Source: Chlamydiia bacterium
Lineage (GTDB): Bacteria; Chlamydiota; Chlamydiia; Chlamydiales; 2-12-FULL-49-11
Direction of reading: 5' to 3'
NCBI GenBank assembly: GCA_044359535.1
Contig: JBIKLZ010000018.1
Coordinates: 1 to 21,174, forward strand
Length of the DNA stretch: 21,174 bases
Shown: piece after piece, positions 3,510-20,568 of the stretch
How positions within the stretch are numbered: the first letter of the stretch is position 1
How the letters are laid out: the number at the start of each line of letters is the position of its first letter
The notes under the pieces: generated by a model
Told to the model about the DNA's origin: nothing
Database searches by the model: none
What the model saw: only the letters and a program-made list of their open reading frames with translations
Translations under genes and position numbers: made by a program

Positions 3510-3599
3510 TATTTCTCCACTCCTCTTTATCCATAAAGCCTCTGGACTCAATTTTGCTAATGTTCTTAAATGGTAGCAAGATCACCCAAAGACTACCCT

Positions 3600-4034
3600 A
3601 TGAAAAAACACTTAAGCTATTCTCTGTTTTTTATCTTATCGTTCACTTCACTATTTGCTCTAGATACCAATGATCTCAATGCAATCGATAAAATCGTCGA
3701 GCACTTTACACATGCATGGAATGATTGTGAAGGAAAAGGATCTGGAGATTACTATAGTCAAGATGCAGATTTTGTGAATATATTTGGGATGGCTTTCTCT
3801 GGAAAGCAGGAAATTGAGAGTCGCCATGTGAAGATCCATGAAACTTTTTTAAAGGGTTCTATATTTGAAGTGATTGAATTAAAAATAAGGGAGGCAAAAC
3901 CTGAGGTTGTGATTGCTCAAGTCTATTGGAAGGTCACTAATATTCAAAAGCCCGGAGCAGAAACTATGAAAGGCATTTTTACTCACACTTTCATTAAAAA
4001 CAAGGGCTCATGGGAAATTGCAACCTTTTTCTAG
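3600..4034 (+). CDS. SgcJ/EcaC-like NTF2/SnoaL-fold protein with signal peptide; last codons supplied by an IS3 end
   Basis: AWN, DADFVNIFG..FSGKQEIE..H and WEI motifs; likely start ATG 3600 (MKKHLSYSLFFILSFTSLFA); sequence from about 4014 is the IS3 repeat. Confidence 0.75.
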   Translation: MKKHLSYSLFFILSFTSLFALDTNDLNAIDKIVEHFTHAWNDCEGKGSGDYYSQDADFVNIFGMAFSGKQEIESRHVKIHETFLKGSIFEVIELKIREAKPEVVIAQVYWKVTNIQKPGAETMKGIFTHTFIKNKGSWEIATFF

Positions 4035-14186: not shown

Positions 14187-14440
14187 TCAGATGAGGCAAT
14201 TACTTTTTTTGCAACTGTAGGGTACCTTTTTAAATTACCACTGCGAGCAACTGAAGGTTTTTTAAAATCTCTATTTTCTGCCTTAGAGCTATTACTTATA
14301 GTTCCTGGTTACTCTGGCGTGTGCAAAAGAATGCAAAAAATTACTCTCCCGACTCATTTAAAAAAAGGGGTAAAAATTAGAGATATAAGACTTCTGAGTT
14401 CAAGCGGTTTAAAAGTATATGGCGAGGGTGAATGAAAAAG
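14187..14440 (+). mobile_element. IS903-group transposase internal fragment (degraded)
   Basis: SDEAITFFATVGYLFKLPLRATEGFLKSLF...VPGYSGVCKRM then SSGLKVYGEGE* (IS903-type DSTGLKVFGEGEW with TGG changed to TGA). Confidence 0.85.
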
Positions 14441-14442
14441 AT

Positions 14443-14475
14443 TTGACTTTTATTTGTGTAATGCTGTAACGTTAC
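14443..14475 (+). promoter_or_regulatory. trpR promoter with overlapping TrpR operator
   Basis: -35 TTGACT 14443-14448, -10 TAACGT 14467-14472; imperfect palindrome GTAATGCTGTAACGTTAC 14458-14475, resembling the C. trachomatis trp operator as recalled. Confidence 0.75.
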
Positions 14476-14500
14476 GTTAAAAGACTAGAAAAAGGGATCC

Positions 14501-14797
14501 ATGCACATACAGAATAAAAAAAATTGGAAGATGTTTTTAGAGCTTTGTTTAAAAACACAGAGCACTTCCCGTTTATCGGATTTATTTGATTTGTTTTTCA
14601 CGATCGAGGAAAAACAGCACCTTGCTTGTCGTATGCAAATTATTGAGGACCTTTTGGAGGCAAAGCTTTCCCAAAGAGAGATCTCTGAAAAAAAGAATGT
14701 GAGTATTTCTCAAATTACGCGTGGGTCTAACGCTTTAAAAATTGCAAGTAGTGATCTTGTAAAATTTATTGAAAGTTACCTAAGGGAGAATAAGTAA
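14501..14797 (+). CDS. trpR: Trp repressor
   Basis: WKMFLEL...FFTIEEKQHLACRMQIIEDLL...SQREISEKKNVSISQITRGSNALK, the TrpR family HTH signature. Confidence 0.93.
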   Translation: MHIQNKKNWKMFLELCLKTQSTSRLSDLFDLFFTIEEKQHLACRMQIIEDLLEAKLSQREISEKKNVSISQITRGSNALKIASSDLVKFIESYLRENK

Positions 14798-14798
14798 A

Positions 14799-14858
14799 AT
14801 GAAAAAAGATCTTTTTTTTAGATTTTCCCTCCCCTTTTGGTGGCGCTTTAAGCTCTAA
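14799..14858 (+). CDS. trpL: Trp leader peptide (19 aa)
   Basis: MKKDLFFRFSLPFWWRFKL*; ATG 1 nt after the trpR stop, GGGAGA RBS inside trpR; tandem TGG TGG followed by Arg as in enterobacterial TrpL. Confidence 0.85.
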   Translation: MKKDLFFRFSLPFWWRFKL

Positions 14859-14953
14859 TTCATTTTTTATTAAAAAATACATTTCATTTGCCATCACCGC
14901 TTTAATTTAGCCCGTTTGGCATCACTTAAACCAAATAATTCAAGAGACTTATT

Positions 14954-16327
14954 ATGATACATATCTATGAGAAAAACTATGTCAAATTTTGTTTTTCATT
15001 ATTAAATAACAATAATATTAACACGCACAATATTGAATCAACTATATTTTTAAATCTTCAAAATGCAAAAAAACTACATGATACGATTGATTCTTATATC
15101 AATAGATTAGCCTTTAGATGTAGCCTTTGTTTTAAAGTTTATATAAAACTTGCAGTAATTAGTGGGGCAGGCATTGCAGGTCTTTGTACATCTTTTGAGC
15201 TTTTAGCAAAGGGTTATAAAGTAATTATTGCTGAAAAAAGAGAAGCTTTTTCTCGCTCAAATATCATTAACTTTAACATAGAAATTCAACATTTTCTAAA
15301 AAGATTTGATCTACTTAGTGAATTTGAAGAATCTGTTGCAGCAATAATAAAGAGTCATAAAGTAATTCACATTGGAAAAGATGGTACAAAAGAGCTTTTT
15401 TTTTCAGATGTTAGCAACCTTAAGCTTAGTAACCAATCTTTTGAAATAGAAAATTTTAACACCCTTTTTAAAGAAGATGGGGTCTACAGTGCAAAGATTA
15501 AAGATTTGCAAGCATTTCTTGCTAATAAAGCTCTAGAAAATGGGGTTCAAATATTTGGAAATGTAAAGGTAAAGATCCAATCTTTGGCGCAAGTAAAAGG
15601 TAGTTTAAAAGTAGAAATAATAGCAAATCGATATTTGCAAAATCCTATAAAACTTAAGCCAGATCTGCTGTTTGTAGCAGAAGGAGCACATTCAACTACT
15701 GCAAAATTTCTTAATCTAAAAGCAAAGGTGGTTAAAAATATGTGCACTGATGAACATTGGGTTTATGGAAATATAAATTATCCAGTTGAAAAGAGTTTTG
15801 TTGTTTCTATAGTAGATACTTTGCAAAAAAATTTAAGTATAGCAAATGTGATTTTCAATGCTAAGGTTGGACAAATCAATATTGCAGTAACTTCAAAACC
15901 GTCTTTAAGTAAAAATCTTATTGAAAATAAGCTTTTAGCTATTTTAGAAAAAGTTTTTACTTTCGAGTCTATGGAGCACATTCCTAACTTTTCAATTACC
16001 ACTGTTGATCGTCCAGTGCGTGTTAGAAATCAAATGCGGAATATTTTTTCAAAAGGGAATGTTTTTTTAATTGGAGACTCAGCAGGCAACAGCTCCCCTC
16101 TTGCTGGTTTAGGTGGCACTATTTGTCTTACTCTTATTCCAAAAGCTGTAGAGCAACTTTTAAAGGATAGTGAAGTAGACCCATCTAATAAAGATAAAAA
16201 CTTTGAAACTTTTTCAAATGCTTATATTTCTAGATGGATGGGTAAATCCGAGCAAGTAAAGAGATTTTGTACCCATTTATTTGATCAAGAGCGACTAAAA
16301 GTGGGGCAATATGAAAATCAGCAATGA
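14954..16327 (+). CDS. FAD-dependent monooxygenase (group A/PHBH fold) with MICAL-like motifs
   Basis: GAGIAGL, EKREAFSRSN, VAEGAHS and LIGDSAGNSSPLAGLG motifs; about 64-aa N-terminal extension. Confidence 0.85.
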   Translation: MIHIYEKNYVKFCFSLLNNNNINTHNIESTIFLNLQNAKKLHDTIDSYINRLAFRCSLCFKVYIKLAVISGAGIAGLCTSFELLAKGYKVIIAEKREAFSRSNIINFNIEIQHFLKRFDLLSEFEESVAAIIKSHKVIHIGKDGTKELFFSDVSNLKLSNQSFEIENFNTLFKEDGVYSAKIKDLQAFLANKALENGVQIFGNVKVKIQSLAQVKGSLKVEIIANRYLQNPIKLKPDLLFVAEGAHSTTAKFLNLKAKVVKNMCTDEHWVYGNINYPVEKSFVVSIVDTLQKNLSIANVIFNAKVGQINIAVTSKPSLSKNLIENKLLAILEKVFTFESMEHIPNFSITTVDRPVRVRNQMRNIFSKGNVFLIGDSAGNSSPLAGLGGTICLTLIPKAVEQLLKDSEVDPSNKDKNFETFSNAYISRWMGKSEQVKRFCTHLFDQERLKVGQYENQQ

Positions 16328-17546
16328 ACAGCAAGGATTTTTTCTAGTGAATTTGGGTGTAGCCTTTGAGCATCTTGACATGATGCTCAGCTCTTTACTT
16401 GCTAGTTGTATTGTAAAAGAATTTATCTACTACAATAGCTATGCAACTGAATTACTTGTTGCCTACACAGCGTACGCCATTGCCTTTTTATTTAGACCTT
16501 TGGGGGCATTTTTTTTTGGTTGTATAGCTGATTTATATGGAAGAAAAATTTCGTTACTTGGGTCTATGGTCTTAATGTCTACTGCAACCTTTGCAATTGC
16601 TTTTATACCAAGTGTAAAGGTTTTAGGGTTTTTCTCTACTATTTTATTTCTTACTTGTCGTATTGCCCAAGGGCTTGCTGTTGGAGGAGAATATGGCACT
16701 GCTATGACTTATTCTTACGAACTTAATCCAAAATTACGAACATTTTATGGCGCTTGTGTAATTTGCTCCACACATATTGGAGGGCTCTTTGCAAGTTTTT
16801 TAGCTAGTCAATATGTAGAAAATTTCCGTCTAACTTTTCTTATAGGGGGATTAATCGGATTTTTTATCCTATTATTTCGCTCGATTTTAAAACAATGTGA
16901 TGTTTCTACTTCGAAAAAACTCTATAAACACATTAAAGAATCGGTAAAAAACAAAAAGGCTATTTTAAAAGTAGTGGTTGTTGCCTCTATGCAGGTTCTA
17001 GTTTTCTATGGATCTTTAATTTATGTTAATGAGCTTGTTTATCAAAATCTTTCTATTTCTCGCTCTTTGATATTTAAAGCCAATTCTCTACTTCTTGGGC
17101 TATGGGTTATTATACCTTTTTGCTTTGGTTATGCTATCGATAGATTTAATTTCTCTTATCTAAAAATAATGAGATTTAGCGCCCTTGGAGTTTTTTCTAG
17201 CGCCCCTGTTTTAGGTTTTTCGTTAACTTTTAACTCATATAAAACAATTTTATGTGCCCAAATTTTTATGCATATTTTTCACATGGTTTTTTGCCTTTGC
17301 ACTCCCCACTTTTTTGGAGATCTTTTTCATCAAAAGATACGTGCTACAGCAATTTCGACAAGCTATTCTCTAGGGGCCTCTTTTTCGGCAGCTTTTGCCC
17401 CGCTAATTTGCCATCTTAGTATCAGTTTTTTTCACACAACCTTTGCTATTTGTCTACCTTTTATGGGGGTTGCATTGGTTGCTATTTTTATTCTTAAACA
17501 GGAGGATTTATGCAAAAAGATGACTCTTTTGAACTCTACGACATAA
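16311..17546 (+). CDS. MFS transporter, metabolite:H+ symporter (ProP-like) family
   Basis: FRPLGAFFFGCIADLYGRK and RIAQGLAVGGEYG motifs; about 12 TM helices; overlaps the upstream gene by 17 nt. Confidence 0.9.
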   Translation: MKISNEQQGFFLVNLGVAFEHLDMMLSSLLASCIVKEFIYYNSYATELLVAYTAYAIAFLFRPLGAFFFGCIADLYGRKISLLGSMVLMSTATFAIAFIPSVKVLGFFSTILFLTCRIAQGLAVGGEYGTAMTYSYELNPKLRTFYGACVICSTHIGGLFASFLASQYVENFRLTFLIGGLIGFFILLFRSILKQCDVSTSKKLYKHIKESVKNKKAILKVVVVASMQVLVFYGSLIYVNELVYQNLSISRSLIFKANSLLLGLWVIIPFCFGYAIDRFNFSYLKIMRFSALGVFSSAPVLGFSLTFNSYKTILCAQIFMHIFHMVFCLCTPHFFGDLFHQKIRATAISTSYSLGASFSAAFAPLICHLSISFFHTTFAICLPFMGVALVAIFILKQEDLCKKMTLLNSTT

Positions 17547-17854
17547 AAGTTGAGGTAGTTAACAATGGATTTAAGCCCATGATATGTAATCACAAAGAGG
17601 GGGACTATTTCCTCCTTAGTGGGGAAAACTTTTCTCTACCTGATGGACAAAGCTTTCCTATTTATTGCCTTGCCGCTTTAATTCCTATTATCACAGTAAA
17701 ACAAAGATTTTGCTCCCCTAATGATTGGATCTCTACAGACCATGAGGTTGCTTGCCCTGATGTTAATTGTGGTGCCGTTTTTAAAATATCAAGGGTAGGA
17801 AAAACAACTTTTTATCACCACCTAATAACAGCTACAAGGATAATGGATGAGTAA
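17510..17854 (+). CDS. TIGR04076-like Cys-rich small protein
   Basis: ELYDIKVEV...CNHKEGDYF.LSGE...VACPDVNCG; CAGGAGG RBS; overlaps both neighbours. Confidence 0.75.
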   Translation: MQKDDSFELYDIKVEVVNNGFKPMICNHKEGDYFLLSGENFSLPDGQSFPIYCLAALIPIITVKQRFCSPNDWISTDHEVACPDVNCGAVFKISRVGKTTFYHHLITATRIMDE

Positions 17855-18842
17855 ATACATACAAACTTCAAATATAATTAGAGGATGCTGGCAGCTGGCA
17901 GCTTCACATTCTAAACAAAATAGCAGTATAGAACCTATTAAAGACGCTATCGAATGTGGTTTTACAACTTTTGACTGCGCAGATATTTATCTTGGTGTGG
18001 AAGAATTATTAGGAAAAGCTTCAAAAATTTTTATAGATAAAAAGCTGCAAATTCATACTAAATTTGTACCCGATCTTAATCAGCTGGAAAAAATTGATCG
18101 CAAATATATTGAAAATATCATCTATCGAAGTCTTGATCGTTTGCAAATAGAGAGTATCGATCTTGTTCAATTTCATTGGTGGGATTTTAAAATTAAAAAC
18201 TACTTAAAAGTGGCAGAAATTCTCTTTGACTTAAAAGCTTTAGGTAAAATACAAAATATTGGCCTTACAAATGTAAATACAAAATATCTAGAAGAATTTT
18301 CAAAATACTTTGATATTACTTGTTTACAAGCCCAAGTTTCTCTTTTTGATAGAAGAATTGAAAAAGGAGTAGGTAAATTTTGCCAAAATAAAAACATTAA
18401 GATTTTTGCATATGGATCGCTACTAGGGGGTTTTGTTAGTGAAAAATGGCTTTATAAAAAGGAGCCAAACCTTCAAGATTTAGAGAATCGCTCTTTGGTA
18501 AAGTACAAGCTTTTGATTGATGCATCTTGCGGCTGGAATAGATTTCAAGAGCGTTTGTTTACTTTATATAACCTTTCTATTAAGTACCATTGTGATATTT
18601 CATCTATTTCTATAGCAGCTTTACTTCAAAGTGGAAGGGCAGATTCGGCAATTGTGGGTCTAAGCCCCACTAATTTTAAGGAGCAAAATCAGAGTTTAAA
18701 ACATCTCCCCCTGTTAGATTTAAAGGATCTAAATGAGATTTGTTTTTGGAGCTGTAATTTGCAAGGGGATATTTATGATGAAGAAAGAGATATAAATAGC
18801 GCTCATGCAAAAATTATGAAATACAACCTTAATGCCCAATAA
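17847..18842 (+). CDS. Aldo/keto reductase
   Basis: GCWQL, FDCADIY, HTKFVP, SLDRLQIESIDLVQFHWW, IGLTN, AYGSLLGG motifs. Confidence 0.92.
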   Translation: MSKYIQTSNIIRGCWQLAASHSKQNSSIEPIKDAIECGFTTFDCADIYLGVEELLGKASKIFIDKKLQIHTKFVPDLNQLEKIDRKYIENIIYRSLDRLQIESIDLVQFHWWDFKIKNYLKVAEILFDLKALGKIQNIGLTNVNTKYLEEFSKYFDITCLQAQVSLFDRRIEKGVGKFCQNKNIKIFAYGSLLGGFVSEKWLYKKEPNLQDLENRSLVKYKLLIDASCGWNRFQERLFTLYNLSIKYHCDISSISIAALLQSGRADSAIVGLSPTNFKEQNQSLKHLPLLDLKDLNEICFWSCNLQGDIYDEERDINSAHAKIMKYNLNAQ

Positions 18843-19329
18843 CAGAAAGATTTAACTTTTGTAGCTTAAAACTTGCCTTATGTAGAAGAATTTAATTTTT
18901 TTCTATATAATGCTGGAACGTTTCCTTCCAAGGCTAGAAAGAGATAACATGCAAAGGGTCTATAATCTTCTTAAAGAAGCTTAGGTAAATTTAAATCTAA
19001 ATCGGATAAGCTATACTTTTATTTTTAATTTTCAGGTTTATTTTCAAGGTTAAGTAACTGTTTTTTATAATTAGTTTCTCCTTCCAACAGTTCACCTTTC
19101 TGGAACAAATCAATCATCGATGTGAGTGTTTCCACTTCTTCAGTTAGGCAAACACTTTTGCACTCACGATGGGTTAGAGAGGGGTCTTCTCAAAAGGAAA
19201 AATCGATCAAAAAAAAATACTTCAAACAATTTGTTTAACTTGTTTTTGAAATTTTTGAATTATTGGATTGAAATTAAATAACCTAGGTATTCATAATTGT
19301 CTTGTATTTTTAACCGAAAGAGGTGATAC

Positions 19330-20568
19330 ATGGCATCTTTATCAAATACTTTTTTTATGATTCCAAGAGAGCTTCCAAGTTATCTAAAGGTTGCTTACTC
19401 GCTGCGTTACGCCGATGAGCCAAATACTGGAAATTGTCTTTCACGTATTGCCAATGTTGTCAAACGCACCTTTGCTTTAATTAAAGAACTTATTAATTAC
19501 AGACCCTGCTTGAGCGATTTCAAAATTAATATTGAAAAGCTCAATAGGGCTTTTGAGAAAATAAATAAAACCGTACAAGGTAATCAAAAACCTCTTTGCG
19601 TTTATTTCGTTAGTTCCCAAGACCACAATGGAGCTATCTTAGGAGACCATCTTTATTACTATCATCATTATAAAATTCAAGGGCTGCAAAAGCATTTTGC
19701 TGTCGCTCCAATGGTTGTCTCTTCTCAAGAAGAGATGAAAAATTTTATGACCTCTCTTCGAGATAACTATCCTCAAAGAGAAATTAAATTTGTTGATGTA
19801 GTAACTCATGGTGGTAAGTCTTCTTTAGAAATTCATCCTCCACGTCAAGGGTCGATTACCCCTGATGTATTGAGAGAGGATCTTTTTTCAGACTGTGCCT
19901 CTGATGCGACAATTTTATTAGATGCATGTATTACAGGATTGGGAGATAGAAATATTGCAGACGAAATTGCTAGAATAACCCCAGGAAGAACAGTATTAGC
20001 CCCCGGTCCTTCACTATATTTTTCAAAACCTGTGATCAAAGTGACCGAGAATAATCCTCGGGTAGTTTCTGCAGTCCATGGGTTTGCAATTTTTAATGCC
20101 TATGAATGTAAATCCTTTTTATATTCAGAAAAACAAGTCACGCAATATCCATATCTAAATGAAAACAACCTGAAGAAGGATATTTTATTAATAGCGGAGT
20201 CTTCGCTCCTTCAAAATACTTGGCTCGATCGGTTTGTAAAAAGTGATAGAAACGACTATAAGACTCAAATAGGTCGTATTTATAACGGGCTTTCTGAAAG
20301 CACCCAAGCTATGATTATACAGAAACTTCGCGAAAAAAATGAAAATTTTGATGGAAATTTCGTTCTTAATGACCCTCTTAATCCTCATGTTCTTTGGGCA
20401 TTTCGATCGATTTTTAAGGAATTGGTGCACGAAGTGCGTGAATATCCTCAGGTTAAAACGGCTAAGATAGGTCTTGTTATTAGGAACATATTGGAAGTGA
20501 TAAAAGAATTTTTTCGCGATCTTACTTATAGAGAAGCTCTAGCTCCCCCTCAACCTCAGATTTCTTAA
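19330..20568 (+). CDS. Hypothetical protein with putative clan CD (caspase-fold) His-Cys dyad
   Basis: GAGGTG RBS; FVDVVTHGG and TILLDACITG motifs; no Sec signal peptide. Confidence 0.65.
   Translation: MASLSNTFFMIPRELPSYLKVAYSLRYADEPNTGNCLSRIANVVKRTFALIKELINYRPCLSDFKINIEKLNRAFEKINKTVQGNQKPLCVYFVSSQDHNGAILGDHLYYYHHYKIQGLQKHFAVAPMVVSSQEEMKNFMTSLRDNYPQREIKFVDVVTHGGKSSLEIHPPRQGSITPDVLREDLFSDCASDATILLDACITGLGDRNIADEIARITPGRTVLAPGPSLYFSKPVIKVTENNPRVVSAVHGFAIFNAYECKSFLYSEKQVTQYPYLNENNLKKDILLIAESSLLQNTWLDRFVKSDRNDYKTQIGRIYNGLSESTQAMIIQKLREKNENFDGNFVLNDPLNPHVLWAFRSIFKELVHEVREYPQVKTAKIGLVIRNILEVIKEFFRDLTYREALAPPQPQIS

Follow-up and report, generated by a model that had tools for sequence, protein, structure and literature searches.

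No nutritional conflict between Chlamydia and its hosts has been studied as closely as that over tryptophan (Trp), and to our knowledge bacteria answer it only by transport or by a synthase-based salvage that starts from indole or kynurenine. In Escherichia coli, the trp operon is controlled by a palindromic operator lying over the -10 box and by a short leader peptide that carries tandem Trp codons followed by Arg. According to the account of Bonner, Byrne and Jensen (PMC3937554), trpR of Chlamydia trachomatis is followed by a Trp-rich leader and then by trpBA, and a tandem-Trp leader lies between trpR and the next gene of C. felis. The operon of the C. caviae, C. felis and C. pecorum group is trpR-trpDCFBA-kynU-prsA, with trpL after trpR in C. 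felis. Parachlamydia, Protochlamydia and Waddlia appear in the same account, as of 2014, among the genera listed without Trp pathway genes. The present analysis concerns a contig of 21,174 nt from an environmental member of the Chlamydiales (the window, by which the whole of this stretch is meant). Between positions 14443 and 18842, it carries trpR and a trpL-like leader followed by genes for a flavin-dependent monooxygenase (FMO), a major facilitator superfamily (MFS) transporter, a small protein of family TIGR04076 and an aldo-keto reductase (AKR). The overall reading, to which a probability of roughly 0.5 is attached, is that these form a single autoregulated operon, which would be switched on when Trp is scarce in an auxotroph.

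The switch itself is already known, both from the trpR-trpL module of the Chlamydiaceae and from double control of the E. coli type. As in the trp operons of the Chlamydiaceae (PMC3937554, PMC7755916), trpR comes first, the candidate operator would be an autoregulating one and the leader has its Trp codons near the C-terminus. The differences lie in the payload, which is FMO-MFS-TIGR04076-AKR rather than trp and kyn genes, in the leader, which abuts or overlaps the trpR stop codon, and in the hosts, which are environmental chlamydiae. The locus resembles the trp operon of E. coli in its two layers of Trp sensing, namely an operator over the -10 box and a tandem-Trp-Arg leader. Unlike in E. coli, however, there is no clear set of 1:2, 2:3 and 3:4 hairpins, the only hairpin at a U-tract having 5 bp and containing the second Trp codon; furthermore, the repressor gene lies inside the operon and the payload is non-biosynthetic. 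Neither this payload nor its pairing with the switch is described in the consulted portions of the literature on trpR in chlamydiae, environmental ones included; among these is PMC4652624, whose table S1 may list TrpR neighbourhoods. Four uncharacterised genes would be under the same double Trp control as real trp operons, in auxotrophic chlamydiae of many families, and a novel response to starvation or a novel chemistry of salvage may well be sought among them first. The combination of Trp limitation with a defined set of genes would also give a physiological handle on the function of TIGR04076 proteins in bacteria and archaea.

The Trp-sensing module and its conservation

The -35-like hexamer, trpR, the leader and the four genes that follow are read on the forward strand. 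The trpR promoter, as read directly from the sequence, has a -35-like hexamer (TTGACT, 14443-14448) separated by 18 nt from the -10 position (14467-14472), which falls inside a near-palindrome of 20 nt at 14457-14476, the candidate TrpR operator. The trpR gene (14501-14797) encodes 98 aa and matches both PF01371 (E = 4.8e-24; 84.7 bits against a cut-off of 27) and, over residues 1-92, the equivalog model TIGR01321 (98 bits, well above the 67.25 required). The leader, of 19 codons and a stop (14799-14858), starts 1 nt past the trpR stop codon and has its tandem Trp codons at 14838-14843, with Arg completing the Trp-Trp-Arg run at 14846. A spacer at 14859-14953, which holds a U-rich tract, a degenerate copy of a hairpin termed H2, the ribosome-binding site of the FMO gene and the 3' arm of what may be a long-range helix, leads to the genes for the FMO (14954-16327; 457 aa), the MFS transporter (16311-17546; 411 aa), the TIGR04076 protein (17510-17854; 114 aa) and the AKR (17847-18842; 331 aa). 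The successive overlaps between these four genes are 17, 37 and 8 nt. A simple consensus scan called neither the trpR promoter nor any leader terminator. The preliminary description of this locus had listed an operator over the -10 box, trpR, a coupled Trp-Trp leader, four overlapping genes and an absence of trp biosynthesis genes, and all of this was confirmed, the absence of trp genes extending to the whole window.

The palindrome is kept in all 19 of the trpR-linked FMO loci for which upstream DNA is available. A TTGAC-type hexamer stands at the same distance from it in the upstream regions of 10 of 19 relatives, with close variants in the others. When a weight matrix built from the palindromes of the relatives was searched over the 1.21-Mb host genome, a single outstanding site was obtained, that of the operon itself (20.8 bits), the next best scoring 15.5 and 14.9 bits, and no strong site was found near permease genes. 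The trpR of the operon is also the sole TrpR match genome-wide. On these comparisons, the host TrpR appears to be a local regulator dedicated to this operon.

In a sample of 400 genomes of the order, the FMO is present in 14, which represent 12 of 216 genera and at least eight families. In total, 33 FMO loci from genomes and metagenome contigs were examined by tblastn; over the 900 nt that were read, L027 does not differ in sequence from L069, and L024 hardly differs from L065. An initial contig scan with a single FMO query yielded one close relative, with 89% identity. Directly upstream of the FMO gene, trpR is found in 20 of the 28 distinct loci that have upstream DNA, and is missing from the other eight. 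The gene order FMO-MFS-TIGR04076-AKR recurs in 19 distinct loci, and the FMO is found without these three partners at four (L017, L026, L029 and L031). The FMO gene is intact in all 14 cases checked. TIGR04076 is the best conserved of the operon genes, with 74-91% identity to its counterpart in the window once the near-identical locus L007 is left out; on the same basis, the values are 60-72% for the AKR, 55-75% for the MFS transporter, 55-69% for TrpR and 39-63% for the FMO. The preliminary description had proposed a search for this synteny in Chlamydiota and had treated a recent rearrangement as one outcome that would count against its reading; the recurrence of the arrangement in at least eight chlamydial families argues that the juxtaposition is neither recent nor accidental.

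Similar regulatory elements are seen at most of the loci without trpR. A -35 hexamer and palindrome lie immediately before the FMO gene in L027/L069, and in L066 the palindrome precedes a Trp-Arg leader. Two Trp codons are carried by the leaders of L016, L067, L026 and L023, and three by that of L028, while nothing comparable to the operator or leader was seen in L031 and L036.

The distribution of trpB is also informative. TrpR matches exceed the cut-off in 115 of the 400 genomes and trpB matches in 63, with both present in 54. Hence trpB accompanies TrpR in 54 of the 115 TrpR-positive genomes, but exceeds the cut-off in none of the 14 genomes with the FMO. TrpR is present in 12 of these 14, and the two exceptions (G037 and G250) carry two-Trp leaders. 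As related genomes are not independent of one another, this cross-tabulation represents a pattern and not a statistic. It fits a scenario in which the FMO cassette takes the place of the trp genes behind an ancestral trpR-trpL module.

The host assembly, in which the window is contig 20, consists of 57 contigs with a G+C content of 36.7% and is 92.6% complete. In line with the check on trp genes suggested in the preliminary description, searches of this assembly found no trpB, trpA, trpC (indole-3-glycerol-phosphate synthase), trpD-type transferase or kynureninase gene, trpF and trpG not being searched. A chorismate synthase, a class I/II aminotransferase and four Trp/Tyr permeases are encoded, and menF, which lies between ubiE and menD, is the sole gene of the chorismate-binding type. 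Since chorismate synthase is present, trpA, trpB, trpC and trpD were not found and the lone chorismate-binding gene is menF, the host appears to make chorismate yet to be incapable of Trp synthesis, within the limits of an assembly of this completeness. The 24 listed sequencing runs that cover positions 14400-18900 of the window are all of DNA, from lake and freshwater metagenomes.

Induction of the operon by Trp starvation is well supported by the conservation of the operator and leader, the linkage to trpR and the lack of trpB in FMO genomes, and from these sequence comparisons it is considered very probable. The earlier proposal that a complete Trp-sensing module controls a non-biosynthetic operon therefore draws support from the comparative evidence across loci.

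Two loci show other fates of the module. At L019 (6574-6765), on a metagenome contig, the N-terminal half of TrpR has been brought into frame with the last part of the leader by an internal deletion in trpR; as TrpR is fused to the leader in this way, the repressor is probably dead. At L074 (G007:C30:6652-13200), from the same genus as the window, trpR is kept, a weak remnant matches FMO residues 5-48 and the next genes are on the opposite strand, such that the operon seems to have been lost from this sister genome, which is 77% complete.

Leader peptide and leader RNA

A putative leader open reading frame (ORF) with a Trp-Arg pair abuts or overlaps the trpR stop codon in all 20 trpR-linked FMO loci, with Trp-Trp in 15 and a single Trp in five. 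A control set of 40 other chlamydial trpR loci was assembled from 38 of the 49 TrpR-positive genomes that lack both trpB and the FMO, plus two unlinked trpR genes of FMO carriers. A Trp-Trp leader was found at none of these 40, and only three possible single-Trp candidates were seen.

Two hairpins and one possible long-range helix can be traced through the alignment of the leader RNAs. In most relatives, the first hairpin (H1; GGCGU/ACGCC, 5 bp) is made up of the second Trp codon and the Arg codon together with the final two sense codons, with the stop codon and a U-run after it. Its folding free energy (dG) is -3 kcal/mol or lower in 16 of 20 loci, a T-run of at least five follows in 12 of 20, and both features coincide in nine of 20, with hairpins of up to 5 bp; 86.7% of the alignment cells are paired, with no double changes. 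In the second hairpin, H2, four pairs are changed on both sides. Its paired share was reached by none of 500 shuffles and its covariation score by three of 500; on this alignment, the H2 covariation is real. The possible long-range helix would join 14836-14841 to 14930-14935 in the window. It would be formed by UUCUUGGU, which takes in the first Trp codon and ends one base into the second, and by its complement, the conserved ACCAAGAA, which lies approximately 17-24 nt before the start of the FMO gene. In this register, 86.4% of cells are paired, against 37-65% in slid registers, and a single C-G to U-A exchange is common to five sequences, including the window. No mutually exclusive antiterminator structure was identified in the leader, the conserved structures seen beyond H1 being H2 and the possible long-range helix.

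These observations suggest how the module may work, with two sensors placed in series. Judging by family membership and the conservation of the operator, Trp-bound TrpR would sit on the palindrome over the -10 box and block initiation. Ribosomes that have finished trpR would then restart at the abutting leader and, if charged tRNA-Trp were short, stall at the Trp-Trp codons. As these codons form the 5' edge of H1 and would be part of the possible long-range helix to the ribosome-binding region of the FMO gene, a stalled ribosome would keep both the 5' arm of H1 and the long-range arm single-stranded, and therefore favour transcriptional read-through, translation of the FMO, or both.

The payload and its relatives

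The FMO matches PF01494 (E = 1.3e-9; 38.2 bits against a cut-off of 22), but misses all NCBIfam equivalog models by hundreds of bits, the weak matches being of the UbiH type. Its family consists of 117 protein clusters, mostly metagenomic, and the annotation of the few that are named is Chlamydiae or a generic hydroxylase-like protein. The structural model has a mean pLDDT of 85.8, with low confidence in the N-terminal 60 residues, and the best Foldseek matches listed for it are all group A monooxygenases, with identities of 14-19%, E values of about 1e-20 for many of them and TMq values of 0.5-0.6. These fold matches include MbnF, a monooxygenase of Bacillus niacini, PnpA, tetracycline destructases, UbiH, kynurenine 3-monooxygenase (KMO), PqsL and PhqK, and the structural neighbours in the Atlas are likewise PF01494 families. 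Gly71 and Gly73 of the GxGxxG motif and Gly374 and Asp375 of the GD motif are invariant in 29 sequences, and Glu243-Gly244 stands where the DG motif would be expected. Hence the FMO shares its fold and flavin adenine dinucleotide (FAD) motifs with the solved group A enzymes, but differs from them in its low identity, in a 65-residue N-terminal extension and in a MICAL-like motif after GxGxxG. On sequence and predicted structure, it is an enzyme of the aromatic-hydroxylase type (group A, PHBH fold), belonging to a chlamydial subfamily that has no characterised close relative.

Two more specific identities for the FMO were examined and rejected. The best sequence matches among solved structures are the monooxygenase domains of MICAL (E = 4.5e-10), but these are limited to the N-terminal FAD region and extend over about 80 N-terminal profile positions, or 41 residues, such that the FMO is not of the MICAL type across the whole domain. 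Nor is it identified as a KMO, as no KMO chain occurs among the 51 profile matches and one single-sequence match to solved structures at E <= 0.01; among the fold matches, KMO ranks 19th at 15% identity, which amounts to generic similarity.

The MFS protein is a general member of the MFS_1 family (PF07690; E = 8.8e-19). Its best match, TIGR00883, is full-length with an E value of 1.9e-46, but its score of 158.9 bits is below the cut-off of 443.45; carriers of tricarballylate and shikimate and the ProP carrier are matched more weakly. It is thus predicted to be closest to uptake-type metabolite:H+ symporters.

The TIGR04076 protein scores 61.5 bits against a cut-off of 33 for its family, over profile positions 2-90 of 91. 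Cys26, His28, Cys82 and Cys87 are invariant, and the model has a pLDDT of 90. Neither a Foldseek search at E <= 0.001 nor a profile search of solved structures found anything similar to this fold. In a wide VIA search, the best matches were the N-terminal domain of an Rv0376c homologue (Z = 6.1) and an XdhC-like protein (Z = 5.0), which are below the level typical for unmatched models. Pfam matches at E <= 10 are restricted to DUF2917 and zinc-finger families, and are faint. In the titles surveyed, TIGR04076 appears in the literature in annotation mentions only.

The AKR assignment (PF00248; E = 2.5e-47; 161.8 bits against a cut-off of 24) is accompanied by an intact catalytic tetrad, presumably Asp43, Tyr48, Lys72 and His110, which does not vary among 16 sequences. 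Of the relatives with solved structures, GSP69/YhdN and perakine reductase match best, and the best NCBIfam match is methylglyoxal reductase. A prediction of the complex between the AKR and the TIGR04076 protein scored 0.00, with no verdict from the tool.

TIGR04076 is not specific to this operon, but pairs widely with AKR genes: outside Chlamydiae too, an AKR gene comes directly after it. The pair has a GntR regulator and a Liv-type ABC transporter as neighbours on plasmids of Rhizobium, Alloyangia, Acuticoccus and Mesorhizobium; the Liv-type operon ends in a fusion of AKR and RidA (PF01042) or, in Mesorhizobium, in a flavoenzyme of the DAO family (L071:1282-2745 and L117:2-1216). This Mesorhizobium FAD enzyme was considered as a homologue of the FMO and ruled out (BLASTP E = 3.6). 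Proteins of the families DUF3830 and DUF4440 adjoin the alphaproteobacterial pair. In a haloarchaeon, the neighbours of the pair encode peptide transport proteins, an M20 hydrolase and a gamma-glutamyltransferase, and in Rhodococcus, TIGR04076 comes after an APC permease and before two LLM oxidoreductases and an amine oxidase. The chlamydial pair resembles the alphaproteobacterial and haloarchaeal ones in consisting of a small Cys/His protein followed by an AKR of about 330-350 aa, beside a transporter gene and one for either a flavin enzyme or a second redox enzyme, but has TrpR and a leader, an MFS protein and a PF01494-type flavoenzyme where those have GntR and ABC transporters. The common theme of these contexts appears to be the chemistry of amino acid or amine, imine, keto and hydroxy compounds.

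The genes behind trpR in the 40 control loci (L074-L113) are different again. They encode PF04392-type ABC transporters (on the same strand or convergent), S9 and M20 peptidases, the TyrP permease, POT peptide transporters behind unknown proteins of 222-406 aa, and an Asp/Glu racemase with an ABC transporter. Also found were aroB-aroA-aroK (L077) and trp genes or their remnants, including a trpE remnant in L079. Judged by these annotations, the functions are overwhelmingly ones of Trp acquisition, and the survey shows the chlamydial trpR as a module that has been re-used with many payloads. At one of the loci (L083; G122:C17, 1838-3346, minus strand), a different PF01494 monooxygenase, of 502 aa (E = 3.6e-79), is convergent to another trpR.

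Readings of the operon

By analogy with the other chlamydial trpR payloads, which for the most part look to serve Trp acquisition, salvage is the simplest reading of the four genes. The MFS transporter would take up a host Trp-related amino-, keto- or hydroxy-acid, or an N-substituted Trp; the FMO and the TIGR04076-AKR pair would convert the imported compound; and free Trp would result, or a keto acid that could pass to a housekeeping aminotransferase. That the payload serves the uptake and redox conversion of a Trp-related compound is put forward tentatively, at somewhat less than even odds. In a narrower version, environmental chlamydiae that have lost Trp synthase would regenerate L-Trp from an N-substituted, oxidised, hydroxy-acid or keto-acid derivative obtained from the host. 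The MICAL-like flavoenzyme would act together with an AKR and with a TIGR04076 protein that binds metal, and the cassette would have been placed behind the ancestral trpR-trpL switch where trp genes once stood. This is a possibility on the doubtful side; if true, it would provide the first function for the widespread TIGR04076-AKR pair. The salvage idea of the preliminary description is thus kept as a hypothesis, favoured indirectly by the acquisition-type payloads of other trpR loci and by the amino acid and amine clusters that contain TIGR04076-AKR; the variant locus L026 would fit synthesis and export equally.

Several observations weigh against the operon as read here. In the regulatory region, the H1 of the window itself is degenerate (-1.4 kcal/mol, with a T-run of six), its leader RNA (14790-14960) folds no better than shuffled sequences (z = -0.99) and no terminator was called in it. 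The long-range helix is mostly invariant, 45 of 500 shuffles match its paired share, the duplex energies of individual loci are mostly weak and that of the window has a z of only -0.10. By our own reasoning, moreover, a ribosome coupled to the polymerase would mask H1 whether stalled or not, such that the simple model fails to separate the two states. As to the payload, a group A monooxygenase adds oxygen, and we know of no route to Trp by such a step. The AKR is rich in Trp, at 1.81% where the genome mean is 0.87%, an odd feature if the protein is produced under Trp starvation, and the Trp content of the proteins gives no clear signal of selection for low Trp. The FMO is without its partner genes in L017, L029 and L031, and the variant at L026 (2387-6900) consists of a Trp-codon leader, the FMO, a YheO-like PAS/HTH regulator, a GntC/VioD-like pyridoxal phosphate (PLP) enzyme and an MFS protein of the Bcr/CflA type, usually an efflux type, with neither TIGR04076 nor AKR. 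By analogy, this variant would be no less suited to making and exporting a modified amino acid than to salvage. Among the listed runs that cover this part of the window, none is of RNA.

The strongest alternative accepts induction by Trp starvation but has the payload make and export, or detoxify, a modified aromatic or amino-acid compound, such as a host-directed signal in the former case, or kynurenine or a reactive carbonyl in the latter. The L026 variant, in which a Trp-codon leader is joined by a PLP enzyme closest to types that act on hydroxylated amino acids and by a Bcr/CflA-type transporter, speaks for it. It is also compatible with the fold of the FMO, common to KMO, PqsL, PhqK and MbnF, several of which act on Trp-derived molecules, and with methylglyoxal reductase as the best NCBIfam match of the AKR. 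However, these fold matches are generic, no KMO emerged from the sequence searches, the canonical MFS protein is nearest to uptake-type symporters and the other trpR payloads seen are of the acquisition type. On this balance, synthesis, export or detoxification is regarded as rather unlikely, if still deserving of attention.

Salvage of a Trp-related compound must also be set against a role in general aromatic metabolism, whether around chorismate and shikimate or around quinones, with the MFS protein importing an aromatic acid that the FMO hydroxylates. TrpR regulons traditionally include genes of the common pathway, which would account for control by TrpR, and in L077 trpR stands directly before aroB-aroA-aroK. 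The weak matches of the MFS protein to a shikimate transporter and of the FMO to UbiH-type hydroxylases point the same way, as do the chorismate synthase and the menF-menD-ubiE cluster of the host. These family matches are, however, far below the curated cut-offs, and the contexts of TIGR04076-AKR elsewhere resemble amino acid and amine clusters instead of aromatic-acid ones. Retention of a Trp-codon leader even where trpR is absent argues, furthermore, for the sensing of Trp itself, and an aromatic or quinone role is accordingly considered improbable.

A further alternative is that trpR-trpL is a relic switch, left behind after the loss of trp genes, into which unrelated genes have moved. Chlamydial trp operons are known to decay, at least in the cases treated in PMC3937554, and the trpE remnant behind trpR in L079 and the broken trpR of L019 could be taken as stages of such a process. 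By contrast, the same arrangement is found in at least eight families, the leader is intact at 20 of 20 loci and the FMO in every gene checked, and leaders and operators are kept before the FMO gene even at loci without trpR; a relic is thus very unlikely. Still harder to credit is that the FMO is a secreted MICAL-like effector oxidising a host protein, with its neighbours as passengers: although MICAL provides the best solved sequence match (E 4.5e-10) and a common motif after GxGxxG, and the low-confidence N-terminal 60 residues could be accommodated, the match covers some 80 N-terminal residues only, MICAL is absent among the best Foldseek matches listed, and at 19 distinct loci overlapping genes tie the FMO closely to the transporter and the AKR.

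Other genes of the window

Four genes or ORFs in other parts of the window were also noted. An ORF of 412 aa directly after the operon (19330-20568) is matched by neither Pfam nor NCBIfam, and tblastn gave no match to it at the other FMO loci. Another, of 728 aa (370-2556), has a faint LOG/lysine-decarboxylase-like match only. The gene at 3570-4034 encodes a DUF4440 protein (PF14534; E = 1.1e-7), and members of the same domain family come right after TIGR04076-AKR on the Acuticoccus and Mesorhizobium plasmids, which may be a coincidence. Finally, the gene at 2615-3379 matches DUF268 (E = 9.1e-32), a family named after Caenorhabditis proteins and here present in a chlamydial genome.

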